In this document: piece by piece, positions 5,541 to 62,410 of the stretch
Layout: each line of letters begins with the position of its first letter
Position numbering within the stretch: the stretch's first letter is position 1
Source: Eledone cirrhosa
Taxonomy: Eukaryota
DNA: 64,000 nt
NCBI GenBank assembly: GCA_964016885.1
Contig: OZ024751.1
Coordinates: 25,792,001 to 25,856,000, forward strand
Reading direction: 5' to 3'
Notes under the pieces: generated by a model
Told to the model about the DNA's origin: nothing
Databases searched by the model: none
The model's input: the letters and a program-made list of their open reading frames with translations, nothing else
Program-made: the position numbers and the translations under genes

Positions 5541-5729
<189 letters not shown>

Positions 5730-5767
5730 GGTAGATAACGTTTTATTTTTCTTGGTGCAATACTTGG

Positions 5768-5820
<53 letters not shown>

Positions 5821-6526
5821 ATGTTACCAAACACTGTTATTTATATCATAATCTAATTAACATATGTTTCATCCGCCTGGGACTCCTCGGAATTAACCAA
5901 GATATAATGACCTCAACAAGTTGATCTTTTCCAGATGCACAATAATGCGTAGAATGTTTTATTTACAAAAAATAAACTGCATAGTCTAATAGGAAATAAT
6001 ATTTACCGCGTGTAGCATGACAGATAATTCACAGTGGCACTTACGTGAATATTTATACATTAAAATAGTCTTGTAATCATAGGCAATGTTGCTTTTTTAT
6101 ATAATAAATTATATATGAATTCCAAAATGTCCAGATGCACAGATCTACGCACAAACACCCATACAATTACACACCCACCCATATACGGACACATCTGCGC
6201 ATGAATGGATAAAATATACATATAAGATATCAATCAGAGAAGCAATTTTACAAATTAAACTTATACCAGACAGACTAAAATAAGAGAGTCTCGCTCATAT
6301 AAATATCTCGCTACCATGGTTTCAAAAACAGAAGAAGCAGTAGCGGGTATTTCAAATCATTGGAACAACCAATACTGTAGAAATGCGTAAAGAGGTATAT
6401 TGATCATGAAGTATACAGAGCATTTCCCGTACTGTCAAAATTTATATGAGTCGGACACTTAACTTAGTCTAACTTATACTCCCCTAACTAGATTTTATTT
6501 TGGCATAAGTTTAATATATAGAGAGA

Positions 6527-6687
<161 letters not shown>

Positions 6688-6766
6688 ATCTAAAAATAAC
6701 AAAACAAATGGCACTCTATGTGGAATAAATATATTAGTTTAACGCTTGCAATAGAAGAATGAGAGT

Positions 6767-6800
6767 CTTAACGTTTCGGACACTAGTCCTTCATCAGAGG
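6767..6800 (-). ncRNA. Minimal PLE-type hammerhead core
   Basis: CTGATGA a GGAC tagt GTCC GAAACGTTA; stem I is weak. A decayed relative lies at about 5448-5478 (+). Confidence 0.55.
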
Positions 6801-7286
6801 ATAGAGTTAGAAATAGAAGATAAATGGAAAGTAAAGAGTGAAAAGAGGAAGGTACGGGGGGAAATGAGAAAAAATTGGGGAGAAAAAACAACCGTGGGTA
6901 TTCAATCGGCCATATATATATATGTATGGGGGGGTATGTGTGTGTCTGGGTGTGGATGCGGGGGGGGGTGTATGTGTGTGTCTGGGTGTGGATGCGGGGG
7001 GTATGTATGTACTCTATTTTGGATCCCGAGAGAGAGAGCTTCACATATCCAGGATAAAGTACGCAATAGTTCAAAGAACAGACACTGTCGGGTATGTTTA
7101 AATCACAGTAGATATGAAATACCCCAACGGCTTATTTTAAATCTACTGTGATTTAAACATATCCGACACTAATTTGCATAATAGAATAAATAAATTTATA
7201 ACCCCACTATCTGAGAGCTTCAAACAGAAATGGTTGCATTCTTTAAGGGTATGTCAATATTTATTTATAAAATTGATCTATATTAT

Positions 7287-7349
7287 ATTTTATCTGATGA
7301 AAGCACACCATAATTTAACTTAGTGTCCTTGAAATATGTATAATGAAAT
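7287..7349 (+). ncRNA. Minimal type I hammerhead, related family
   Basis: ATTTTAT CTGATGA AAG c ACAC...GTGT c CTT GAAATATGTATA|ATGAAAT. Confidence 0.72.
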
Positions 7350-7987: not shown

Positions 7988-8028
<41 letters not shown>

Positions 8029-8075
8029 ATAATAATAAATTTGAAAACTAAGATCCAAAGAGGGCTCGATAAGGA

Positions 8076-8136
8076 GTTTTCAGAAGATCCCGTTAAGGGT
8101 GAAAGCAGCGATTCTTTGCTTAAAATTTAATCTGTT
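8076..8136 (+). ncRNA. Hammerhead, CAGAAGA family copy
   Basis: GTTTT CAGAAGA TCCCGTTAAGGGT GAAAGCAGCGATTCTTTGCTT AAAAT; stem I is TTTT/AAAA. Confidence 0.65.
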
Positions 8137-8336
8137 ATTTTAATAAATATATATATGTGTGTGTGTGTGTGTATCAAGTAATACTATGATTGGATTTCAT
8201 ATCATTGTATGTCAATGTGAAATACAACAAAGGACAGATTAAATTGATTTAGCATGTGGACATTATATATAAGATAACAACAATTGAACAATCAACTTTA
8301 TATGTAGCAAAAGCTATCTCTAATACTTTTTGTTTC

Positions 8337-11602: not shown

Positions 11603-11991
11603 TAGAATATGTTTATGTATGATAAACACGCATATAGTTTGTCTTTATATATTTTGAGCAGGGTTCAAATCTCAGCTTACGTATAGAATATGTTTATGTA
11701 TAGTAAACATGCATTATAATTTGAGCAGGGATCGTACCCCAGCTAACTTATAGAATATGTTTATGTATAGTAAACATGCATTATAATTTGAGCAGGGATC
11801 GTACCCCAGCTAACTTATAGAATATGTTTATGTATAGTAAACATGCATTATAATTTGAGCAGGGATCCTTACGGGGTCGATAAAATAAAGTACCAGTAAT
11901 GCACTGGGTAATTGCTGGCCTTGTGCCTAAAGTAGAAACAATTATAATTTGAGCAGGGATCGTACCCCAGCTAACTTATAGAATATGTTTA
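11603..11991. repeat. 67-bp minisatellite interrupted by a SINE
   Basis: Unit starts at 11684, 11751 and 11818. Confidence 0.9.
11865..11944 (+). mobile_element. SINE family A 3' fragment inserted in the 67-bp minisatellite
   Basis: Flanked by TSD ATTATAATTTGAGCAGGGATC. Confidence 0.85.
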
Positions 11992-12074
11992 TTGAAACAC
12001 AGAAACCTGGAATGAATGCTACATAACCTTTTACCCGATATCCTAACGACTCCGCCAACATACCGCTTGTTATC

Positions 12075-12265
12075 AATAATTGTTTCTACTTTAGGCACAA
12101 GGCCAGCAATTAACCAGTGCATTACTGGTACTTTATTTTATCGACCCCGTAAGGATGAAAGGCAAAGTCAACCTCGGCGGGATTTGAACTCAGACTGTAA
12201 AGGGACGTAACTATGCTGGAAAGCATGGCGTCCGACCCTCTACCGATACTGCCAATCCACCGCCC
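12075..12265 (-). mobile_element. SINE family A, full length (tRNA-derived head, Meta/MESC-like central domain)
   Basis: A box TGGCAGTATCGG, B box GAGTTCAAATCCC, core GCCTTTCATCCTTACGGGGTCGATAAAATAAAGTACCAG; TSD GTTATCAATAAT. The domain name is from memory. Confidence 0.9.
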
Positions 12266-12523
12266 TAACAGTTATCAATAATGTTATCAATAATGCTGTC
12301 ATCAATACCTTAGTATGGATCGATCATGTCACGTGATCATGTCGCGTGATGTCTCTCCGTTAAGTCATCCATACAAGTAATACTTCAATAGAAAATGGCT
12401 GCTAAGTGGATTAATTAACGATTTGATGACGGTTTGTTAATGACTTAAGTCGTTATAGGAGAGCTCTAATTAGATATAATAATGAATCTTCCTTGGAAGG
12501 GGAGGTTAACGTTGTTGTTGTTG

Positions 12524-12555
<32 letters not shown>

Positions 12556-13006
12556 GGTGGTGGTGGTGGTGGTGTTGATGTTGTTGGTGATAATGGTGAT
12601 GCTGTTGTTGTTGTTAACGTTGATATTGATGTTATTAATGCTGTTGTTGTTGATGGTGATGATGTTGTTGTTGGTGATGATGGTGTTGTTGTTGGTGTTG
12701 GTGATGGTGATGTTGTTTTTGATGATGTTGCTGTGTTGATGGTGATTGTTGTTGCCGTTGTTATTTTTGTTGTTGATGTTGTTGATGTTGGTGTTGACTT
12801 TGTTGTTATGGCTGTTGGGTGATGGCGATATTGTTGTTGTTGTTGTTGATGTTATTGATGTTTTTGTTGTTGTGGAGGATGTTGATGTTGTTGTTGTTTA
12901 TGATAGTGTTGTTGTTGTTGCTGATGCTTTGTCCCAGTTCGTCCAGAGAACAATAGATAAAGTAAATTCACTCAAACCAATGTGTCCTTCCTTCATTATT
13001 ATAGAA

Positions 13007-13370
13007 AGTATCGGTAGAGAGTCGGACACCATGCTTTGAAGCATAGAGTTACGTCCCTTTACGGTCTGAGTTCAAATCCCGCCGAGGTTAACTTTGCCTT
13101 TCATCCTTACGGGGTCGATAAAATAAAGTACCAGTAATGCACTGGGTAATTGCTGGCCTTGTGCCAAAAAGTAGAAACAATTATTATAGAAAGTATCGGT
13201 AGAGGGTCGGACGCTATGCTTTGAAGCATAGAGTTACGGCCCTTTATGGTCTGAGTTCAAATCCCGCCGAGGTTAACTTTGCCTTTCATCCTTACGGGGT
13301 CGTCGATAAAATAAAGTACCAGTAATGCACTGGGATAATTGCTGGCCTTGTGCCAAAAGTAGAAACAATT
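13007..13370 (+). mobile_element. SINE family A tandem dimer
   Basis: Two copies, with ATTATTATAGAAAGTA before, between and after them. Confidence 0.9.
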
Positions 13371-13684
13371 ATTATAGAAAGTAAGCTGTGAATTAAGGAA
13401 GTTTTACTTGTTATTTTTAGAAAGCCAAGTAACCACATAGACAGTCACATATTGTGTTGTTATTGTTGTTGTTGGCGTTGTTTGTAGTTGGGTTGATGAG
13501 GAATGGGTTTTGTTTCGGAAAGATAGCACAATGAGCACAACGAGAAGAAAAACTCGCAAGAGACAGGGAAACACGAAAAAGCAACACTCACTTCTTCAGC
13601 TACCGTCTGTAGGTTACGTAACAGCCATACGATAGGTTGTGATGCATAATGGTGGTACCGATAATACTGCTACATCAGTGTTTA

Positions 13685-13983: not shown

Positions 13984-14152
13984 TTTAGGAAATATGAACG
14001 TGAGGCTGAAAAAACGGGCAAAAAGGGTTTAGGGGATTGGCTTTTGCTTCTGTATATTATATATCCCTACAATTAATTTAGCTGTATATATATTTTTTTT
14101 CCCTGAACCCTATTTGCCCGTTTTTTCAGCCTCACTTTCATATTTCCTAAAT
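13984..14152. repeat. Inverted repeat adjoining hammerhead 14196
   Basis: TTTAGGAAATATGAA.GTGAGGCTGAAAAAACGGGCAAA recurs as its reverse complement at about 14100-14152. Confidence 0.7.
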
Positions 14153-14471: not shown

Positions 14472-15058
14472 ACATATATATCAAAACTGGTGTGTTATCT
14501 ACCAGTGTAATTAAATCAACTGAATTACCCCACAAAATATGAGATGTGGGTGTAAGATTACGTTTTTTGAAAAGTAAAGTTGGCAGTACCATTAATATTT
14601 TCGGAAAATAATACATATATATATGTGTATGTGTATGTGTGAGTATGTGTGGGCGTGCGTTGGTGTGCATGCGAGTGTATATAGATCGATATAATTCTGT
14701 TTATTCGGATAAAATTCATATCTTTAACAGCTGTTGTAGGACTTCATCGAATGAAAACAACAAAAACAATATGGTTACATCTGCTAAAGTTTCTAAAGTG
14801 AGGCTAAGAATATTTCATATATTTAATAGTCAAAATAATCCTTACACTCTTTAATGGACAACAGTTATATATATATATATATATAAGGAAAAAAAGATGA
14901 AATCAAAATTACATTTTCGATTTCTCTTTTTTTCCTTATATATATATATCAAAAGTTTAACAAGGTTCATTGATTAATCAATAAATAAAGTTTTACAATA
15001 GATTAGAAGCACTCAACAGTGGTATGTGGGCACAGTTGAGGTATGTCAGACATCAATC

Positions 15059-15124
15059 TATTTTATCTGATGAGGACGTACTGATGAAATAGCTCAGTGC
15101 CTCTGAAATATGTATAATAAAATA
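15059..15124 (+). ncRNA. Minimal type I hammerhead, same family as 18559
   Basis: Same core and stems, inside a TA-flanked insert at about 14950-15160. Confidence 0.78.
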
Positions 15125-15186
15125 TATTTGATCACATGAATGTCTATATTTATTAATATTTTGAAGTAATATATATATATATATAT

Positions 15187-15957: not shown

Positions 15958-16206
15958 TAGGACCCCGACGGCTGAGCTCAAGCCGTTTCGACGGCTAATT
16001 CTGGACTACATGAAAATGTTTATCCTGGTAAAAAAAAATGTTCATCCTGGTAAAAAAATGTTCATTTAGTCCAGAATTAGCCGTCGAAACGGCTTGAGCT
16101 CAGCCGTCGGGGTCCTAGTCGTTCCTATTACCCACTCTACTACCCTAAGTATTGAGTACTTTGGTGCGTTATGGTCCATCTGGTTCCTTACCACATTTCC
16201 TTCGTT
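15958..16206. mobile_element. TA-flanked fold-back insert, same family as 49638
   Basis: Arms about 15958-16010 and 16067-16118, separated by a duplicated ATGTTyATCCTGGTAAAAAAA spacer. Confidence 0.7.
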
Positions 16207-18180: not shown

Positions 18181-18255
<75 letters not shown>

Positions 18256-18345
18256 AAGGTTAAACAAGGTTCAATGAATAAATCAAAGAATGAGTTTTAC
18301 AATAGATTGGAAGCACTCAACAGTAATGGTTTTCCGGAGTTATTA

Positions 18346-18673
18346 ATATTAATTCAAAATATTAACAAAAATAGACATTCGTGTGATCAAGTATATTTTA
18401 TTATACATATTTCAGAGGTACTGAGCTAACTTCAACAGTACGTCCTCATCAGATAAAATAAGATGATGCATGACATACCCTGACATAGTAGATGGTTAAG
18501 ATTCAGTCATGACTGAATCTTAACCATCTACTATGTCAGGGTATGTCATGCATCATCTTATTTTATCTGATGAGGACGTACTGTTGAAGTTAGCTCAGTA
18601 CCTCTGAAATATGTATAATAAAATATACTTGATCACACGAATGTCTATTTTTGTTAATATTTTGAATTAATAT
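18346..18673. repeat. Spacerless palindrome of about 328 bp (PLE pLTR fold-back)
   Basis: Centre ...CAGTCA|TGACTG... at 18509/18510; arms match by eye; the insert is bounded by (TA)n. Confidence 0.92.
18559..18625 (+). ncRNA. Minimal type I hammerhead ribozyme (mirror copy at 18394-18460, -)
   Basis: TATTTTAT CTGATGA GGA c GTACTG-loop-CAGTAC c TCT GAAATATGTATA|ATAAAATA: 8-bp stem I, canonical core, near-palindromic short stem III. Confidence 0.82.
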
Positions 18674-24190: not shown

Positions 24191-25155
24191 GAAAAACAAC
24201 CTACACAAATACGTGACTGATAGTAAGGAGCCAATGCTCAGAACTGTACTGAAGGAGGGGACAATAGACCAGGAGATGTCCAAGGAGGAAATAACATCAA
24301 GGAGAAAGAGCAGCCTTCAGGAAAAATCCCTTCATAGTACCTTCTTTGAGAAAACTGAATTCAGAGATCCACAGACATGGAACTAGTTGAAAAGAGGAGA
24401 CCTTAAAAAGGCTACAGAAGGAATGTTAATGGCTGCGCAGGAGCAGGCCCTCAAAACGAAGTGGTTGAAACACCATATTTACAAGGAGGAGGCTAGCCCA
24501 CTGTGCAGGATCTGTGGAGAGAGAGAGGAGACTGTGGCTCACATTGTATCCGAGTGTAAACACCTATCCCAGACTCACTATAAGGGCTGGAGACATGATG
24601 TGATGGGCAGGGTGATCCACTGGCACCTATGCAAAGTAAACAATTTACCACATTCTGAGAAGTGGTATGAGCATAAGCCATAGTCGGTGATAGAAAACGA
24701 TCAGGTGAATGTGCTGTGGGATTTTAGGATATAGACGGACAAGAAACCGGAACACAATAGACCTGACCTGGTGGTTTTGGACAAGGAAAAAAGATCGTGC
24801 CTGATTGTGGATGTGGCCTGCCCATTCAACACGAGAGTGCAAGAGAAGGAGAGGGTTAAAATTAACCGATACCAGGACTTAAAGTGAGAGGTAAAAAGGA
24901 TTTGGAACTGCCATGAAGTCAAAGTGGTCCCGATTGTCATAGGCGCACTAGGTACTATCTCAAAAGGTTTCCAGGGATGGTTAAAGAAAATTGGCCCCGC
25001 CACGCTTTTTGGAACGCTTCAAAAGGCATGCTTGCTGGGAACAGCAAGAACCCTCCGATATGTCCTGAATATCTGAGGCTGGAGGTAGTGGCTTGATATT
25101 CATTTCAACAAACTTTCCAGTTAACTAACATCAATGACTGAGACTCAAAGAACAA
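24191..25155 (+). mobile_element. 3' part of an R4/Dong-clade non-LTR retrotransposon (CCHC knuckle + restriction-like endonuclease)
   Basis: One frame from 24192 to 25076 with four in-frame stops reads ...WN*LKRGDLKKATEGMLMAAQEQAL...CRICGEREETVAHIVSEC...RHD...WDF...NRPDLVV...IVDVACP...PIVIGALG...LQKACLLGTARTLRYVL*. Preceded by (TAA)n at 24083-24190 and followed by a short UTR and AATAATAATAA. Confidence 0.92.
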
Positions 25156-25437: not shown

Positions 25438-26779
25438 TATATATAATGTGTTGCCATTACACCAATGCCCCACCCATGCTTTCTTGCATTCCATTAGAGG
25501 CTATATAACCACATGTATATAAATATATATATAGACGCACACAAACACACACACACATATAAAAATATATATATATAAGTGTGTATATATATATAAGTGT
25601 ATATATATATATATATATACACACTTATATATATACACACTTATATATATATATTTTTATATATATATACGTATACATATACATGTATATAAATATATAT
25701 ATATATAAAATATTAAAAAAATAATGAATAAAACAAAGAAACAGTTCCTTATATTAAACAAAAAAAGTTCATTATTTAACGATCGTTTCTAGGACATATA
25801 TGTGTTAGAATTGGCATGCATATTCAAAAGATCTATGTACAAAATTATACAAACTATCAAGGAGAATATACATACCATCACATATATATGCTGTCTTCAG
25901 AAATATATATATATATATATATATAGTCAGTAAGGAATGGATATGTTTGCATGTGTCTAAGTGTTTGTTTGTGTGACTATGTTTGTATACATATATATAC
26001 AAGTAGAGTAATTTATTTTCTCTTTTAATTTCATAGGATGGAACATATTGAATTCATTCGAATATAGAATTATTGTTTGCACAAGTTCTCACATCCCCCA
26101 GTCACTCAATACCTCTATGGACAATCGTTTAATACAAAACACAGAGCACACACAAGAGAAAAGGGGAGAAAGCATAGAGAAAATCCACAAAGTGTGTAGA
26201 TAGAAACCAAATAAATTTAGTCTAAATCACTCCTACTTCTATAACAGGTTTTCGTTGCAAAACCTACGATATTATAGTAACTGGATACCGAAATTTCTGT
26301 TATGAAAGCAACGGGCGAAAGTTTAATGAATTTCCGTCATTTGATATCCGCCATGTTGAAAGGTTACACGGGTTGGTTATGTCAAGCAATGTTGTTATTC
26401 AACACTCCAGAAGATACCATATGAATGTAAAAAGTGTTATATCTTACGCCAGTCTTCTGCCAACGATATTGGATTGGGTCTAGTCGATCAGCGGAGAATG
26501 GATTTTACCATACCGGTTTCGTTCTCATTCAAATATCAGGTTGTCTATGTTGTTGTGTAAGTGAAAGTCTGGGTATGTACTGATATATACATACATACAT
26601 ACATATATACATACATACATACATACATACATACATACATACATACATACATACATGCATGCATACATACATACATGCATGCATACATACATACATACAT
26701 ACATACATACATACATGCATACATACATGCATACATACATACATGCATACATACATGCATACATGCATACATACATGCA

Positions 26780-27180
26780 TGGTGGCTGCCAACTCGTTTT
26801 CGAGTACGGCCACTACTTTATATCCATGTAGAAAAACCCCTACCGATGCGCTGAACGAGTGTGGCTTTTTAGTCCAGCCAGCGACTTGAACACTCTGGTA
26901 CAAACACTACACTTGTGACAATTATTGACACATAATGCTGGGCCCATGGTACCATGTGACGACAAGTGCAGAGAGATCTCCAGATATAAATCAATGCCTG
27001 TGCCGTGAAGCTTTTATAGTGAGCAAAGGCACTGCACAAAGCCAGTCCCACTCTCTTAACCAAGATGATGTTTACCAAAAAGAAGAACAAGTCAACATCA
27101 TTGGATACCATCAGGGTTGCAGGTGTTATATCAGAGTTTTCCTTCTCCTAGAATTCTGCCTTGACAAAGGCTAAGGGGTC
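26780..27180 (-). mobile_element. Family C copy, 5'-truncated
   Basis: The near-identical ORF-track translations at 26869-27174 and 51656-51961 show the homology. Confidence 0.75.
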
Positions 27181-27232
27181 ATCTCTATACATGCATACAT
27201 ACATACATGCATGCATGCATACCCATATACAC

Positions 27233-27317
<85 letters not shown>

Positions 27318-27324
<7 letters not shown>

Positions 27325-27697
27325 ATATTTTGGGAGGGTCATGTTGCCAATAAAACCACACACACACCTTTTGGTTTTCACTTCAATTTATTATAAATTT
27401 CCGGTTGGTTGGTTCGATAACCAGAAGGTTGATTATATATTGTTAAAGCTCTTTCGTCACACATTATGCAACCTCCATAGTGACTAGGTTTTTATTTTTG
27501 TGTGTATCCCCTTTGTTCTGTCCAACACCATCTTGATTTTGTGAGTTCACAGAATATGTGAGGAAAGATCTTTGACAATATATAAACAACCTTCCAGTTA
27601 TCGAACCAACCAACCGGAAATTTATAATAAATTGAAGTGATAACCAACAGGTATGTGTGTGTTTTTATTGGCAGCATGGCCCTCCAAAATTATAACT
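27318..27697. mobile_element. TA-flanked inverted-repeat insert (MITE-like or PLE fold-back)
   Basis: Diverged inverted arms of about 150 bp. The terminus TTATATTTTGGGAGGGTCAT matches the pLTR termini at 44211 and 48937. Confidence 0.65.
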
Positions 27698-28478: not shown

Positions 28479-29406
28479 CCTACGATATTATATAATATAT
28501 ACATATTTATATGTGTGTGTGTGAGTGTGTATGTATATATGTGTGTGTGTGTGTATGTATATATATATGTGTGTGTGTGTGTGTAGTCAACTATATGTTT
28601 CCAAGTCATGATCCACCTGTCATCTATCAAGCATTGCATATCTAGCTTTACACTATCCAATGTGTCACTCACTTCTAAAGACGGTAGACTGTAATTTAAG
28701 GGAAAATTGACTGCTGGTTCTAGCAGGTCGATTAACTATGTACAGACATCATCAATTGCATATCGAATATACGTCTAATCCTTACAAAAGTGCCACACTG
28801 AGTGAAAGGGTGCGTGTTAAATAGCAATGTCTTTCTGGTTTGTAAGATATTTATGACTTGTTTTCAACTCAATAATACCGATGCAATGTCATAGAATCAG
28901 ATTGTATATGCAGGATGAAAGACTTTGCTACTTGATAATATACATTGCCGCGTAAATCAATACACGATCAGTGAACTTAACAGTGAATAAGTTTGCTTTT
29001 TTAACACAATGATACAATTTTATATCGATCTAAGTGTTTGAACTTTATCACATGATTACAGCCAACCAAGTACAACAAAGCAATTTAACATCATCATTTA
29101 TGTTGCTAAACGCCTTTGAACAAACTAAATATTGCTCAAGTCATAACATTACATTTTCCCTTTCAAATGGATCTTTTGATTGATTGAAATTATTTCTGAT
29201 TAAGGCACAGGGCCAACAATTTAAGGGGAGTGGGAAGTCAATTAAATCGACCCAAGTGCATTCTCTTCGATGCTAAATTCCGCCAGTTGCAGATTGCGCG
29301 TCAACATGAGATAATTTTCTCCACAAAGTTCGATCACCAGCAGCAGAGTTTAAAGAGCAAAGATCAAGTCCAGTCCATAAGTTGACATTATCAAGCCTTG
29401 TATTAT

Positions 29407-29750
29407 TGGTACTTTATTTTATCGACCCCGTAAGGATGAATGGCAAAGGATTTGAACTCAGAATGTAAAGGGCTATAACTCCATTCCGCAAAGCATAGTG
29501 TCCGACGCTCTAACTTTGCCTTTCATCCTTACGGGGTCGATAAAATAAAGTACCAGTAATACACTGGAATAATTGCTGGCCTTGTACCAAAAGTAGAAAC
29601 AATTATTATACGAGGATTGGCAGTATCGGTAGAGCGTCAGACACCATGCCTTGCAGGATATAGTATTGGCCCTTTACGTTCTGACATCAAATCCCTCCGA
29701 GGTTAACTTTGCCCCTTCGGGGTCGATGAAATAAAGTACCAGTAATGCAC
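29407..29750. mobile_element. Cluster of three SINE family A fragments in both orientations
   Basis: Minus 29407-29510, plus 29511-29607, plus 29615-29750. Confidence 0.8.
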
Positions 29751-36382: not shown

Positions 36383-36679
36383 TGCAGTATCGGTAGAGGG
36401 TCGGACGCCATGCTTTTACGCATAGAGTTACGGCCCTTGCCATTCTGAGTTCAAATCCTGCTGAGGTTAACTTTGCCTTTCATCCTTACGGGGTTGATAA
36501 AATAAAGTACCAGTAATACACTGGGTTATTGCTGACCTTGTGCCAAAAAGTAGAAACAATTATTTTATCAAATTCCACCGAGGTTAACTTTGCCTTTCAT
36601 CCTTACGGGGTCGATAAAATAAAGTACCAGTAATACACTGGGATAATTGCTGGCCTTTTGCCAAAAGTAGAAACAATTA
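36383..36679 (+). mobile_element. SINE family A, one near-full copy plus a tandem 3' half
   Basis: Core and tail are each present twice. Confidence 0.85.
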
Positions 36680-39600: not shown

Positions 39601-39677
<77 letters not shown>

Positions 39678-39678
<1 letters not shown>

Positions 39679-39753
39679 CAGATTAAAGTTTAAGCAAAGA
39701 ATCGCTGCTTTCACCCTTAACGGGATCTTCTGAAACTAACAAAGTCAATCTGT
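39678..39753 (-). ncRNA. Type I hammerhead ribozyme, CAGAAGA (U4A) core variant
   Basis: Minus strand reads ACAGATT-ga-ctttgtt-AGTTT CAGAAGA t CCC gttaa GGG t GAA AGCA gcgattctt TGCT T|AAACT tt AATCTGT. Stems I (with internal loop), II and III all pair by eye. Confidence 0.7.
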
Positions 39754-39947
39754 AAACGCAGAAGTGTATATTTCAAAAAACGTTGCAACCGAAGGAAGAC
39801 AGGAAGACGATACTTTGGTTCGTGGAAACTTTCCCTTCACAAAACATACAGGTAATATGTACTTACCTATGCAAATAAGTAATGGTATAAACATAACATA
39901 TACTTAGCTACCACATCAAGACGTAAAATATCCGCGTATAGATCGTA

Positions 39948-41188
39948 CTATTCGTTAGGGTATAATGTGGGGCTGTAACAGAGGAAAGTGTTGTGCAATT
40001 TGTGTTTACAAGCCGAAATTGCCTCAGATTTTTTGTTTAAAATGTGGTCTGTGGCGTAGAGTATTTCCAGGGCCTCAGCGGCACAGAGATCACATGATCT
40101 TTTATTTCCGTTATACGATCTAGCCCTAGCTAGGATCTCCCAGTGTAACTTATATTGGGTGGGGTTGTCTTTTAGACTCCAGATATAAGCTGAAAGTGAT
40201 GTCATATTCCTTCTTAGAGGGTAACGAAAAGAATGGTATGCATGTAAAGACGCTGCTTGAATCTATTGGCGATTAACCCTATGTAAGCCCTACGGGACGT
40301 GGGTGTTTCAACCTTACATTTGTAGACAATGTTACTAGAGAGGCATTTCCCGGATAGGGGGCAATCAACCCGATTCCTACAATTACAGTTAGTACTAACT
40401 ACAGGGTTGCACGTGTTCCTACGGCTAGATAGTTTAGCTAAATTTGAAGCTGTGATGTTATGTGCAAGGTTAGGAGTCGTAGAGTAAGAAATTTTAATAG
40501 TATTTCTATTAAAAATGTTACTATATTTATGTGTAGGGGGAAAATGCTTCGTAATAAGGGATAGAAAGATCTTAGCTAATGGTGTGGCCACCTCCATATT
40601 ATATGGTGGGTTATACCATATAATGCGTCGGGATTTATTACTTCTAGGTCTACTCTCGTACTCTGTATATGCTACCTTATCGACAAATCCACTCCGAGCA
40701 AGAGCTTCATTGTAATATGTGGAATGGTCGTTGAAAATATGCTCGTTAGTAGATAGACGGGAAAGCCTCAACGAAATGTTTCTTACCAGGTTCTTGGTTA
40801 TGCTAGATGGATGGTTGGAATGCTTACTTATGTAATTAAGCGTATCATACGGGTAATACAAGCCATTCGATAAATTGAGGGTAACATCGAGGTAATTAAC
40901 GACCGAGAGGTTGGCCTCAACCTGTATAGAGAGGTTGAAGCCTTTAAAGAAGGCTGTGAATTCTTTTCTGAACCTGTCGCAAGCACGAGGGCCGCATTTA
41001 GTCATGGTCAAAAGACCATCATCACGGTACAAACCACCGCCCGCGTTGGGGAATTCATCCTTGATAGGGAAAAGAAGGAAAAGGCCGATAAGATCAGTAA
41101 CCTCCGCAGAATCGCTGGCGCCCATACTCACGTCGAATGGGGTACTATTGGATTTTTTAATGCAAATAGAGTCGTCGAAATTAATCAC
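39948..41188 (-). pseudogene. PLE RT/GIY-YIG ORF, truncated and frameshifted
   Basis: Two ORF-track frames are joined by a single-base frameshift; the N-terminal RT is missing. Confidence 0.88.
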
Positions 41189-41196
41189 CGACTTAC

Positions 41197-41227
<31 letters not shown>

Positions 41228-41242
41228 TTATATATATATATA

Positions 41243-41370
<128 letters not shown>

Positions 41371-41414
41371 TTTAGGAATAACCAAAGAGTGCTTAGAAAT
41401 ACATTGTTTTATTT

Positions 41415-41459
41415 GCTAACAATGTTTCATCCATACCCTATGGCAGGGTTCATCAGAGC
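41415..41459 (-). ncRNA. Hammerhead-like motif inside fold-back insert 41367-41592
   Basis: GCT CTGATGA accctgccatagggtatggat GAAACATTGTT|AGC; stem II pairing is ambiguous. Confidence 0.5.
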
Positions 41460-41689
41460 TTATAAACAGAAATATATCAAACGTTGCAGGCTCATTCGAG
41501 CTCAGTCATCAGAACAAGGAGAAATGACAAGTAGGGGGGTTCCAAGGACAGTGCTATATTTCTAAGCACTCTTTGGTTATTCCTAAACTTATTACGACTC
41601 TGTAGTATACTAGCTATCATACATTGAGCTAAAACCACACTGCACATTAATATACTTGTCAACGAATCTATATATATATATATATACAC

Positions 41690-43716: not shown

Positions 43717-43794
<78 letters not shown>

Positions 43795-43825
43795 AAAGAA
43801 TAGAGGTGTAACACACGAGTTATGA

Positions 43826-44215
<390 letters not shown>

Positions 44216-46866: not shown

Positions 46867-47516
46867 TGGAGTTATCTTACATACTCATATTTATAGACAG
46901 AACCACGGCCATTTTCTAAACTCCGTGGAGTTATCTTACATACTCATATTTATAGACAGAACCACTGCCATTTTCTAAACTCCGTGGAGTTATCTTACAT
47001 ACTCATATTTATAGACAGAACCACAGCCATTTTCTAAACTCGGTGGAGTTATCTTACATACTCATATTTATAGACAGAACCACAGCCATTTTCTAAACTC
47101 GGTGGAGTTATCTTACATACTCATATTTATAGACAGAACCACAGCCATTTTCTAAACTCCGTGGAGTTATCTTACTTACTCATATTTATAGACAGAACCA
47201 CAGCCATTTTCTAAACTCCGTGGAGTTATCTTACTTACTCATATTTATAGACAGAACCACAGCCATTTTCTAAACTCCGTGGAGTTATCTTACATACTCA
47301 TATTTATAGACAGAACCACACAGCCATTTTCTAAACTCCGTGGAGTTATCTTACTTACTCATATTTATAGACAGAACCACACAGCCATTTTCTAAACTCC
47401 GTGGAGTTATCTTACTTACTCATATTTATAGACAGAACCACACAGCCATTTTCTAAACTCCGTGGAGTTATCTTACTTACTCATATTTATAGACAGAACC
47501 ACACAGCCATTTTCTA
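46867..47516. repeat. 59-61-bp minisatellite, about 11 copies
   Basis: Unit CTCCGTGGAGTTATCTTACATACTCATATTTATAGACAGAACCACAGCCATTTTCTAAA. Confidence 0.97.
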
Positions 47517-49598: not shown

Positions 49599-49637
<39 letters not shown>

Positions 49638-49640
<3 letters not shown>

Positions 49641-49843
49641 CGAAGGAAATGTGGTAAGGAACCACATGGACCATAACGCACCAGAGTACTCAATACTTAG
49701 GGTAGTAGAGTGGGTAATATGAACAAGTATGACCCCGACGGCAGAGCTCAAGCCGTTTCGACGGCTAATTCTGGACTCAATTCTGTCCAGAATTAGCCGT
49801 CGAAACGGCTTGAGCTCTGCCGTCGGGGTCATACTTGTTCCTA
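49638..49843. mobile_element. TA-flanked fold-back insert (probable PLE pLTR)
   Basis: Inverted arms of about 56 bp containing CCGTCGAAACGGCTTGAGC; homologous oppositely oriented copy at 15958-16206. Confidence 0.7.
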
Positions 49844-49907
49844 TATATATATATAGATAGATAGATAGGTAAATATACACGGGTGTGTATGATTGTGTAT
49901 AGAAGAT

Positions 49908-50298
49908 TATATTAATAAGAGGAATTCCAGCTTTGTCTGATTTACTCGTTTTATTTACAATCCTTTAAAATATATATAATATGGTATTATAATGAAATAG
50001 TATGATAGAATATTAAATTCTAAGTGTTAATTGAACAAGTACTTTCATGCTTTCGCAATCTTCAGGTTCATGATATGTGGTGACAGTCGAGTTTGCAATT
50101 TTCAACAGTTGAAAATTGCAAACTCGACTGTCACCACATATCATGAACCTGAAGATTGCGAAAGCATGAAAGTACTTGTTCAATTAACACTTAGAATTTA
50201 ATATTCTATCATACTATTTCATTATAATACCATATTATATATATTTTAAAGGATTGTAAATAAAACGAGTAAATCAGACAAAGTTGGAATTCCTCTTA

Positions 50299-50306
<8 letters not shown>
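49908..50306. repeat. Near-perfect palindrome of about 399 bp with 1-nt loop (PLE pLTR fold-back)
   Basis: Centre CAAC-A-GTTG at 50107; one arm mismatch seen (CCAGCT vs AGTTGG). Confidence 0.92.
50144..50182 (+). ncRNA. Minimal type I hammerhead (mirror copy at 50032-50070, -)
   Basis: TGAAC CTGAAGA t TGC gaaa GCA t GAAAGTACTT|GTTCA, with a palindromic AAGTACTT stem III. Confidence 0.78.
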
Positions 50307-50365
<59 letters not shown>

Positions 50366-50515
50366 AGTAATAATAATAAATTTGAAGACTAAAATCCAAA
50401 GAGGGCTCGATAAGGTTAAATATATATCAGATATATAAGAACCGTAGACCAAATAATTATTAAAATAACAGATTAAAGTTTAAGCAAAGAATTGCTGCTT
50501 TCACCCTTAACGGGA
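50366..50515 (-). mobile_element. Truncated pLTR end of the CAGAAGA family
   Basis: Shares TAGTAATAATAATAAATTTGAA..CTAA..TCCAAAGAGGGCTCGATAAGG with 8024-8074 and carries the 3' half of the hammerhead. Confidence 0.65.
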
Positions 50516-50714
50516 GGATATATATATATATATATATATATCACAGATACATATATGAGTTTGGCTACCTTTCACGGTGTGGCTCAATGAAAAATTAATT
50601 AAGCAAATAATCATTAATCAGAGCTATATATAAAGTTTACGTGGTTGATTTATACGAACTAGGAATAGGAAATACTGTATATATTTTATCTAATAGTTCT
50701 TCAAACTTGCAATT

Positions 50715-51486: not shown

Positions 51487-52050
51487 ACCTGTCTCATGGT
51501 CGGGTTGTTGACGACTAAACTGGCAACCCCACCAAGGTTTCTTGGTGAGGAGGGTGACTTTGGACATCTTGCAGGACTAAAAACAAAACCTGTCAAAGGG
51601 CAAAGGAGCTCTTAAGAGTCAATGGCCATCCAAAATCACCGGGAGAGATGACCTCTTAGCCTTTGTCAAGGCAGAATTCTAGGAGAAGGAAAACTCTGAT
51701 ATAACACCTGCAACCTTGATGGTATCCAATGATGTTGACTTGTTCTTCTTTTTGGTAAATATCATCTTGGTTAAGAGAGTGGGACTGGCTTTGTGCAGTG
51801 CCTTTGCCCACTATAAAAGCTTCACGGCACAGGTATTGCTTTATATCTGGAGATCTCTCTGCACTTGTCGTCACATGGTACCATGGGCCCAGCACTATGT
51901 GTCTATAATTGTCACAAGTCTAGTGTTTGTACCAGAGTTTTCAAGTCGCTGGCTGGACTAAAAAGTCACACTCGTTCAGCACATCGGTAGGGGCTCTCCT
52001 ACATGGATATAAGGTAGTGGCCGTACTCGAAAACGAGTTGGCAGCCACCA
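51487..52050 (+). mobile_element. Non-autonomous RTE-related element (family C) with (TATG)n tail
   Basis: Closely similar to 26780-27180 (-). Contains CTAGGAGAAGGAAAACTC, reminiscent of RTE 5' UTRs, and ends GTACTCGAAAACGAGTTGGCAGCCACC before a microsatellite. Confidence 0.65.
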
Positions 52051-52088
52051 TATATGTATATATGTATATATGTATGTATGTATATATG

Positions 52089-52122
<34 letters not shown>

Positions 52123-52769
52123 GATATACAGATGTTGGACTGGAATGCCAGGGAGTGTTATATTCCTTGTCAACCTTTTCAATAGAAATCCCTCCACAGT
52201 TCTCTTGGCTTCTGGCCATTGCTCTCTTTCCTAATCATCTGTTACAGACATATTCAATTAGTTAAACCTCCTTCTCTTCCTCTCACCCCCACCTCCCCCT
52301 CCCATCCCCCACCTGTTCCACCCCCACCACTCCCTCCTACCCTCACATCTTCCACCACCGCCTCTCCCTCCCACCCTCACATATTCCACCCCGCCCCTCC
52401 CTCCCACCCCCACATCTTCCACCCCCACCTCTCCCTCCCACCCCAACATCTTCCACCCCACCCCCACATCTTCCACCCCACCTCTCCCTCCCACCCCAAC
52501 ATCTTCCACCCCAACCCACATATTCCACCCCACCTCTCCATCCCACCCACCTCTTCCCCCTTCTCCCCTAACATATCTCCCCCCCCCCACATCTCCCACC
52601 TTTTGCTTCATGAGCCTCCTCCTCCGCCATATATCTCATTACTCTCCTCCGCCTTCTTCACTCTTTCCCTTGCCGTTTCTCCTCCCCCCCCCCCCAACTC
52701 CCCTGAAACTTGTTGAATCTAGTGTATGATATAATTCTGAATATAATATAATATAATAGCGAGCGATTT

Positions 52770-58817: not shown

Positions 58818-59006
58818 ATAATTGTTTCTACTTTAGGCACAAGGCCAGCAATTACCCAGTGCATTACTGGTACTTTATTTATCGACCCCGTAAGGATGAA
58901 AGGCAAAGTCAACCTCGGCCGGATTCGAACTCAGATCGTAAAGAGACGTAGCTATGCTGGAAAGCATGGCGTCCGACCCTCTACCGATACTGCCAATCCA
59001 CCGCCC
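58818..59006 (-). mobile_element. SINE family A, full length
   Basis: TSD ATTATCAAATCCTAATAAT. Confidence 0.9.
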
Positions 59007-59292
59007 TTTGATTTGCCACACTGGAGAATATTATCAAATCCTAATAATATTCTCCAATGTGGCAAATCTTAACTTACTTAAAATATGTATAGGATTATAA
59101 GATTGACATTCTCTGTTTCGATTATGACATTTGTAAGTCTTTAATGACAGCTACAGTTAATAAAAATGAATGTGTATAAGGATTAAATATATGTTGGATA
59201 AGGATAAACTATATGGTAAATAAGTACATATGTACATATGTACATATGTGTGTGTAGATCTATCTTTTCTCTCACACACTCTCTCTCTCCCC

Positions 59293-61204: not shown

Positions 61205-62221
61205 ATATTTGTATATATATATATACGTATATATATATATATATATATTGTTATATTATATGTTATATGCTATATAAATGTGTGGGCGCGTGGTCGTGTG
61301 TCTATCGATTATTATAGAAATAAAACTATGTATAAGAAGTAGTTTTACATGTCTATTCCATTGTATTTTGAAACTATGATAGTTCTAACTGTTTAGAACT
61401 ATCATAGTTATGACACAAAACTAAGATGTCCGCTAGTGATCACGTTGTGAAGGTTTCCATCTCACCCTGCCTCATTGATCGAAACCACAAAACGAATTAA
61501 TGAATAATACAGTACTGTATGTGTGCTTGTGTGTTTTGGGCGTTTTACATTTACAATATGACTTACTACCGGCTCAACTATTTCAGTAGTTTACAGATAT
61601 TTCCTTCTATGTGGATAAATTCGTGATTTATATTTACTGTTTAATTATTTCACATATAAGTTCAGTATAGTCCCAATTTCTTATTACTTGTTATACCTTG
61701 ATTATATATATATGTTGATTAGACGATTCGTGATGTAGGTTTAAGGGTTCATGCGTGTCTAGTTACCGCATCTATGTCTGCTGTGTGTGCCAGTTCAGTG
61801 TGTGTTTTCTGCGTGCGTGTGCGTGTGTGTGTGTGTGTGAGAAACTCTTCTCTATCACTCTCTGTAGGTAAATATATGCATATTTTCTTTATATGAGTAT
61901 GCATGCATGGTCCTGTAACATCTGATCGAATCATAGGGGCGTCGTATTGACATAAGGCATTTTTAGGGCATTTCTTTAAACCTAGCGTAGCCCATTCCCT
62001 CCCAGGTAAGAATACAGCAGATTTCTTCCAGAGAAGGAAAGAGAGTGAGAGACGGGAAGTGAGATATTTAGAAGAAGAATCTACCCCGTACTGGAAAGGT
62101 ACTTTTGTTATCGATCCAGAAAGGATGAAAGCCAAAGTTGACTTTGCTGGGATTTGAACTCGGGGAGCCGAAAAACATACTATCCGACGTTCTAACGACT
62201 CACCCAATTCGTCGCCATTAT

Positions 62222-62410
62222 GGTGAATTAGCTGTATCGGTAGAGGGTTTAACGCCATGCTTTGCAGCATAGAGTTACAGCCCTTTATGGTCTGATTTCA
62301 AATCCCGCCGAGGTTAACTTTGCCTTTCATCCTTACAGGGTCGATAAAATAAAACACCAGTAATACACTGGGATAATTGCTGGCCTTGTAGCAAATATAG
62401 AAACAATTAT
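62222..62410 (+). mobile_element. SINE family A, head-to-head with an older minus-strand copy
   Basis: Core and tail intact. Confidence 0.85.

Follow-up and report, generated by a model that had tools for sequence, protein, structure and literature searches.

Inverted, 5'-truncated copies and one-sided tails of 30-40 bp are standard features of Penelope-like elements (PLEs; PMC8557442, PMC2377424), and head-to-head copies with palindromes at their junction were reported for this group in 2013 (PMC3846280). In Adineta vaga and in Penelope of Drosophila virilis, inverted pLTRs exhibit junction palindromes and a tail on one pLTR, as the locus described here does in its palindrome and putatively in its tail (PMC3846280, PMC2377424), but they flank ORF-bearing tandems and have been interpreted as self-priming products, whereas the siblings of the present insert favour two primings. 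How the tandem and inverted structures of PLEs form is stated to be unresolved in PMC8557442. Hydra-clade elements, including Penelope-13_HM, Penelope-3_HM, Hydra-1_Crog and Hydra-1_Obim, target (TA)n and carry near their 3' ends a type I hammerhead with a U-flanked TG..CA stem II and cleavage after U; Penelope-13_HM additionally shows a 5'-truncated inverted copy with a hammerhead on each strand (PMC8557442). Dual minimal hammerheads (min-HHRs) lying ~100-700 bp apart on opposite strands were reported from Schistosoma in 2014; they have a short stem I, a palindromic stem III and a predicted need for dimers, and show low cleavage even as dimers (PMC4209133), dimer cleavage by hammerheads being attributed to Lunse et al. 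in a review (PMC6765202). Non-LTR retrozymes, too, are linked to PLEs and are short animal repeats that carry type I hammerheads but no coding sequence; they form, however, head-to-tail tandems with ribozymes on the same strand (PMC7229834; bioRxiv 10.64898/2026.07.22.740005).

The window analysed here, a 64-kb stretch of Eledone cirrhosa DNA, is AT-rich (23-43% GC) and dense in microsatellites. A hairpin scan over all 64 kb gives the palindrome 49908-50306 as the longest of six listed hairpins that are not of low complexity. In our view, the insert at this position most likely consists of two 5'-truncated, non-coding copies of a PLE 3' end (pLTR) joined head-to-head in (TA)n, with the following components.

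49842..49867, no strand: (TA)n/(TAGA)n microsatellite at the left boundary, seen in the sequence; likely a target remnant, which also borders the insert 49640-49841
49868..49907, minus: putative PLE tail of ~40 nt, on the left arm only, assigned by analogy with verified tails
49908..50106, minus: left arm, a 5'-truncated copy of the element 3' end (hairpin scan)
50032..50070, minus: type I minimal hammerhead, minus copy, predicted cleavage after 50037
50107, no strand: apex, one unpaired base A at the head-to-head junction (hairpin geometry)
50108..50301, plus: right arm, a 5'-truncated copy flush at (TA)n and without ORF (arm comparison, T50284 versus G49930)
50144..50182, plus: type I minimal hammerhead, plus copy, C3 at 50149 and predicted cleavage after U50177
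50302..50366, no strand: (TA)n microsatellite, the right-hand target (repeat scan)

The two arms are 199 bp long, are separated by one central base and differ by a single mismatch (G49930/T50284); the outermost 5 bp of each are TA-repeat letters, and the non-repeat arm is 194 bp. On both strands the hammerhead sense lies on the arm that leads away from the apex, and the copies are therefore head-to-head with their 3' ends outward. The preliminary description of a 399-bp palindrome having a 39-nt hammerhead ~37 nt off the apex holds on both strands; it is accurate in what it covers but overlooked the (TA)n on both flanks and the ~40-nt extension of the left arm. The right arm is flush against (TA)n; on the left, ~40 nt of unique sequence separate the arm from (TAGA)n/(TA)n. 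The tail candidate is AC-rich in the element sense and is predicted to form a 6-bp stem-loop (-5.1 kcal/mol); a tail motif found in two of six tails in the window is absent from it. Stops are present in all three sense frames of the arm, which has no coding potential. Compared with Hydra-clade PLEs the insert lacks an ORF and both of its copies are short, and the whole insert is therefore palindrome. There is no tandem array at the insert and each strand has one sense copy; identity as a non-LTR retrozyme was rejected on the grounds of the missing array and the opposite orientation of the copies. As a feature the locus is ordinary, PLE inverted copies with opposite-strand hammerheads having been described already.

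Each hammerhead begins 37 nt from the apex, with C3 at 42 nt, and combines stem I (TGAAC/GTTCA), the core CTGAAGA, stem II (TGC-GAAA-GCA), a following GAA and U as cleavage nucleotide. The motif therefore contains the core CUGANGA...GAAA...UH with stems I and II, as expected for a type I minimal hammerhead, and its short stem I, palindromic 6-nt stem III (AGTACT) and predicted need for a dimer are shared with min-HHRs. It differs from these in having a stem II of only 3 bp with an extra U on each side, the resulting U·U replacing the G10.1-C11.1 pair (PMC4209133). One hundred Markov controls contain no match with a palindromic stem III and a stem I of at least 5, and 0.05 matches per control are expected at the focal score with an intact core (20 controls); a motif of this quality is thus beyond chance because comparable matches are almost absent from the controls. 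Moreover, a covariance model in which seven of ten pairs covary, built from six other hammerheads, places the focal copies first among 25 window matches at 28.2 bits (E ~5e-6, with rough calibration). The six rows were hand-chosen for a 9-nt stem III from 15 aligned hammerheads of Hydra-ORF-bearing loci and four of them carry U·U, a choice that favours the focal match; two alignments were dropped from modelling because their stems were out of register or their rows too few. The assignment in the preliminary description as a minimal PLE-type hammerhead with palindromic stem III is upheld. At gathering thresholds no Rfam family matches anywhere in the window, and at E<=10 none of 29 matches within 49600-50600 is to a hammerhead family; these sub-threshold matches, mostly to miRNA hairpin models, were discarded as generic.

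Several features bear on the source of the insert. The copies are 5'-truncated and head-to-head with their 3' ends at the target, the hammerhead lies within ~200 nt of the 3' end, and the distance from C3 to (TA)n is 152 nt, compared with 64-161 nt in the five of eight ORF-bearing loci that have a TA run. A PLE origin is, in our judgment, very probable. Membership of the Hydra clade is probable rather than assured. It is suggested by the insertion into (TA)n, a feature not unique to that clade, and by the hammerhead itself: stem II has an additional U on either side in 14/25 Hydra-clade families and cleavage follows U in 10/25 (Craig et al. 2021, PMC8557442 File S2; counts made by eye from the table), and Hydra-1_Crog has the same letters as the focal motif from stem I through the core into the beginning of stem II (PMC8557442). 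Stem III differs, being AG..CT and 6 nt long rather than 9-10 nt and AC..GT; the AC start and GT end are found in 25/25 published Hydra-clade motifs (PMC8557442 File S2, also by eye). A 6-nt stem III does occur in other PLE-like motifs. Arm and tail queries found no second copy or parent of the focal family in the 64-kb window and no significant match in 18 loci from GTDB genomes, and the exact 30-mer of the focal hammerhead has 0 occurrences in GTDB; both the clade and the tail are accordingly assigned by inference.

A Hydra-type PLE remnant with coding sequence lies nearby, belonging to a different family.

39670..41200, minus: 5'-truncated Hydra-type PLE, with RT thumb, CxCX5C linker, GIY-YIG without CCHH, CxxC and CxH

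Its RT/GIY-YIG remnant (39951-41227, minus strand, frame broken near 40230) is ~9 kb from the focal insert and is the only PLE-type coding remnant revealed by a six-frame search of the window; at E<=1e-10 it has matches to 120 proteins, 551-759 aa in length. The motifs CxCX5C, GIY-YIG without CCHH, RWK and DKT are those of Hydra-clade proteins (PMC8557442), and the first of these, together with the absence of CCHH, is present in this remnant, not in the non-coding focal insert. Pfam searches of two ORF pieces of the window gave 0 families at E<=0.1.

Scanning GTDB genomes with an alignment of the Hydra-type protein yielded the 18 loci (L001-L018), 16 of which are convincing; L017 and L018 (37% identity over 52 aa, E 3e-4) were set aside as spurious. 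Loci L001-L016 are clusters of Hydra-clade PLEs of animal type, accompanied by (TA)n runs and hammerheads, on contigs of bacterial genomes or MAGs, and they presumably reflect contamination of symbiont or MAG assemblies by host DNA. Intact-core hammerheads are present in 11 of the 18 loci, that of L011 and L014 being the published Hydra-2_aMil motif (PMC8557442 table). Within L006, two inserts trace to ORF-bearing parents: the 217-bp palindrome (6091-6307) of the insert 6024-6312 is the 3' end of an element in L011, and the palindrome (6780-7125) of the insert 6715-7128 is that of a copy in L009. The architecture is therefore tied to autonomous Hydra-type PLEs. In the second of these inserts the tail-less arm owns a 60-nt spacer and agrees with L009 at two sites where its partner, the arm with the putative tail, differs.

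Eleven compact inverted inserts were selected in the window from 103 segments between (TA)n blocks and from hairpin and motif scans, and were then measured. Each of the 11 has (TA)n next to one arm or both, and seven reach the next (TA)n on the opposite side after a further 40-98 nt. Spacers range from 0 to 155 nt (<=8 nt in six inserts) and the arms are 0-1 mismatches apart. Intact hammerheads are seen on both arms of two inserts, variant or partial motifs, partly identified by eye, in five, and none in four. Three inserts of the window bear on how the focal insert arose.

18253..18669, no strand: the "18.5-kb palindrome", a sister insert that has no spacer and whose left arm bears a tail of ~97 nt
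14950..15168, no strand: head-to-head insert with non-overlapping halves, one being tail only and the other a hammerhead arm ending at the short end
8026..8146, no strand: second non-overlapping head-to-head insert, with a 49-nt tail half and a hammerhead half

As claimed previously, the focal sequence is unrelated to the 18.5-kb palindrome, BLAST between the two giving no match.

These comparisons also bear on two explanations of the focal insert that do not involve retrotransposition. A MITE of palindromic structure, or a foldback DNA transposon, that had inserted at TA would account for near-perfect inverted arms and TA flanks, but the focal insert has a PLE-type hammerhead and is asymmetric, with its extension on one side, equivalent inserts trace to RT-GIY-YIG parents and the inserts of the window have no common outer ends; we regard this origin as highly improbable. 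Palindromes with near-zero spacers are a recognised type of long-read artefact, and a fold-back chimeric read or other sequencing or assembly error would produce one. As the preliminary description proposed, the mismatch between the arms speaks somewhat against this, and the distinct flanks, the one-sided tail, spacers of 0-155 nt among the 11 inserts, and the recurrence of the pattern both in the literature and in assemblies obtained independently (L006, L011) speak against it further. On present evidence the palindrome is real and not an artefact, the residual chance of error being smaller still than that of a DNA transposon.

The (TA)n-flanked inserts of the window are diverse. Inserts 49640-49841, directly left of the focal palindrome, and 15960-16205 belong to one family; they are independent inverted inserts with the same arm start, apparently inside hammerhead stem II, and different spacers. 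Three different PLE-like inserts stand in a row at 49640-50518, parted only by (TA)n runs, and the (TA)n here is a microsatellite acting as an insertion hotspot. Four (TA)n-flanked inverted inserts are coreless (13985-14150, 14873-14949, 27321-27696 and 43792-44099, the one at 43.8 kb with a one-sided tail of 39-40 nt) and are possibly the ends of Naiad-type PLEs. The insert at 41369-41668 has 33-bp arms, a putative one-sided extension of 79 nt and a 155-nt spacer containing an imperfect hammerhead oriented as the tail-less arm.

The structure of the non-overlapping siblings is informative with regard to mechanism. The halves of 14950-15168 match positions 185-255 and 30-162 of the long arm of the 18.5-kb palindrome, and this copy confirms the tail of 18253-18669 as element sequence. 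Similarly, the halves of 8026-8146 match 104-152 and 4-62 of the copy at 50367-50518, the tail half being identical to 50367-50415 at 47 of 49 positions, and the non-overlapping halves of L011:7260-7359 match 5747-5800 and 5687-5737 of their parent. In all three inserts a tail-only half is joined without overlap to a half that ends at the short end. The short ends are found again in independent copies and form the termini of copies with an ORF (39.7 kb; L009); the element at 39670-41200, whose 3' UTR has a variant hammerhead, ends at (TA)n at the short end of its family. Because the non-overlapping halves end at two recurrent 3' ends, priming on two strands is favoured over a single fold-back cDNA. 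This is the new angle provided by the window, the focal insert itself directly displaying the geometry, (TA)n flanks, outward 3' ends, intact hammerheads on both arms and lack of an ORF.

We therefore consider it reasonably probable, if well short of certain, that the focal insert is a dead-on-arrival product in which two 5'-truncated cDNAs of the PLE 3' repeat, primed on both strands of (TA)n, were joined head-to-head. The RT-GIY-YIG protein would nick both strands of (TA)n, and reverse transcription would begin at two fixed sites in uncleaved element RNA, the "short end" and the "long end", the latter adding the tail. Both cDNAs would then halt near the same RNA position and their 3' ends would join via a few self-complementary bases, giving a spacer of 0-8 nt. 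A long-end cDNA stopping before the short-end site would give a non-overlapping inversion, and one running past it would give a palindrome of the focal type. Two-strand, two-site priming is consistent with in vitro data for an Anolis PLE, the protein of which cleaves and extends both target strands, starts reverse transcription at two sites bracketing the tail and takes uncleaved RNA as substrate, hammerhead activity being dispensable (PMC11167929).

Self-priming has been proposed for PLE inverted junctions by Arkhipova et al. 2013, who interpret the junction palindromes in this way (PMC3846280). In a fold-back, a PLE cDNA would snap back at a small hairpin, copy itself and jump to the other (TA)n end; at the focal copy taken by itself this model and twin priming predict identical sequence. 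The 0-1 mismatches between arms, the spacers of <=8 nt in six of 11 window inserts, and the presence of variants common to both arms of an insert but distinct from those of another insert (the 49.7-kb and 16.0-kb copies) are all as expected from such a course. The three non-overlapping inserts, however, are not obtained from a single fold-back cDNA without further deletion, and two-strand, two-site priming gives all of the forms. A secondary deletion is also needed for the tail-less arm with extra 5' sequence, and apex sequences of 8-9 nt form no DNA hairpin (0 kcal/mol for the apex letters alone, with the parent stem excluded). Non-overlapping inserts could have arisen by later deletion across a palindrome apex; overall, we view self-priming as possible but doubtful. 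The preliminary suggestion that fold-back is common to several families is therefore sustained in one part: unrelated families do have the same architecture (the 11 window inserts, L006 and L011), but fold-back is one possible mechanism, and siblings with non-overlapping halves argue for two priming events.

Twin priming in the case of L1 uses two primers per insertion, so that the 5' part is inverted and a little sequence is lost where the parts meet. The non-overlapping siblings resemble such products, but in L1 the internal site at which the second primer anneals varies and the two parts have no overlap, whereas here the second start recurs and overlap gives palindromes. A more general version of priming on both strands, to which we give slightly less than an even chance, is that one RT-endonuclease dimer primes both target strands at two fixed RNA starts and that the insert forms are one continuum. 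Palindromes, spacer-containing inverted repeats and L1-like inversions would then differ by cDNA run length alone, and self-priming on an antisense template would be unnecessary. We found no statement of this two-site reading for PLEs in the literature searched, which takes in few subscription papers. If it is true, such genomes would be densely seeded with perfect ~200-bp hairpins which, once transcribed, could feed A-to-I editing or siRNA pathways. The window supplies a countable genomic signature, namely recurrent short and long 3' ends and overlapping versus non-overlapping halves, that separates twin priming from self-priming.

The remaining question is whether the ribozyme sets the structure, either because cleavage or folding fixes the apex or because the paired copies work as a dimer ribozyme. 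The minimum free energy (MFE) structure of the hammerhead monomer consists of stems I and II (-4.2 kcal/mol), and stem I is predicted to form to ~70% in the motif with 20-nt flanks but to ~5% in the right arm alone. In an RNA of the whole palindrome (MFE ~-320 kcal/mol) the calculated probabilities of stems I and II are both 0. A two-molecule dimer is feasible at -13.8 kcal/mol, but the MFE of the cofold (-16.4 kcal/mol) is a non-catalytic pairing. The earlier claim that such motifs cleave as dimers gains nothing from this arrangement: a dimer needs two sense RNAs and is not supplied by one transcript, since each strand has one sense copy, and a transcript of both arms buries the motif in duplex. 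The hammerhead is likely a passenger, predicted by folding to be unable to form in a read-through transcript.

The position of the apex leads to a similar view. Distances from apex to C3 are 42 (focal), 57.5, ~16 and 5 nt in the window and 13 and 84.5 nt in L006. All six measured hammerhead-bearing palindromes thus have an apex <=85 nt from C3, as would be expected if the ribozyme mattered, but a short 5' truncation alone brings the apex near the hammerhead. The values scatter over 5-85 nt and four of the 11 inverted inserts have no hammerhead core, and we therefore reject a fixed apex-to-ribozyme spacing; the link between apex and ribozyme advanced earlier is not supported. Enrichment of hammerheads in palindromes, which had been named as a check, is weak: motifs satisfying the strict descriptor occur in two of 11 palindrome loci compared with 4% of non-microsatellite sequence (P=0.07, not significant), and counting degenerate or partial motifs would raise the enrichment, but post hoc. 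In addition, both arms pass uncut through the predicted cleavage site 70 nt from the apex, and Naiad PLEs, which do not have canonical hammerheads, form the same inverted structures (PMC8557442). A further point in favour of a ribozyme role comes from another PLE family of the window (8081, 13.8 kb, 39732, 50465-50515 and 57148), in which the matches to the parent begin 3-4 nt ahead of C3 in three cases out of five, a pattern that hints at an RNA 5' end used repeatedly. On balance, and given the dimer energies and the sequestration in duplex of copies lying on opposite strands, we judge it very improbable that the ribozyme sets the structure. Palindromes of this kind are best annotated as retroelement debris, and not as miRNA hairpins, functional ribozyme loci or assembly errors.

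All four core-including copies of this other PLE family have the core CAGAAGA (U4 -> A), which from its sequence would be either an inactive or an unusual hammerhead variant; the copy at 50.5 kb begins past this point and does not include it. Outside palindromes, the window holds further hammerhead motifs from at least four families, at 7294 (plus), 7798 (minus), 14202, 15704, 39449 and 5890, several with a long stem II of 10-18 bp. A 59-bp minisatellite at 46867-47516 (10.9 copies, 98% matches) yielded none in a hammerhead scan. Other repeats in the window include a SINE-like dispersed repeat with tandem and inverted copies (11865-13373, 29399-29749, 36463-36679, 58950-59010 and 62108-62347) and a dispersed inverted pair of 484 bp that is 94% identical (26703-27186 and 51644-52127). 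Finally, a decayed reading frame at 24691-25020 (plus) has an "RPDLVV...IVDVACP" stretch that we take to be PD-(D/E)xK-like, resembling the restriction-like endonuclease of a non-LTR retrotransposon.
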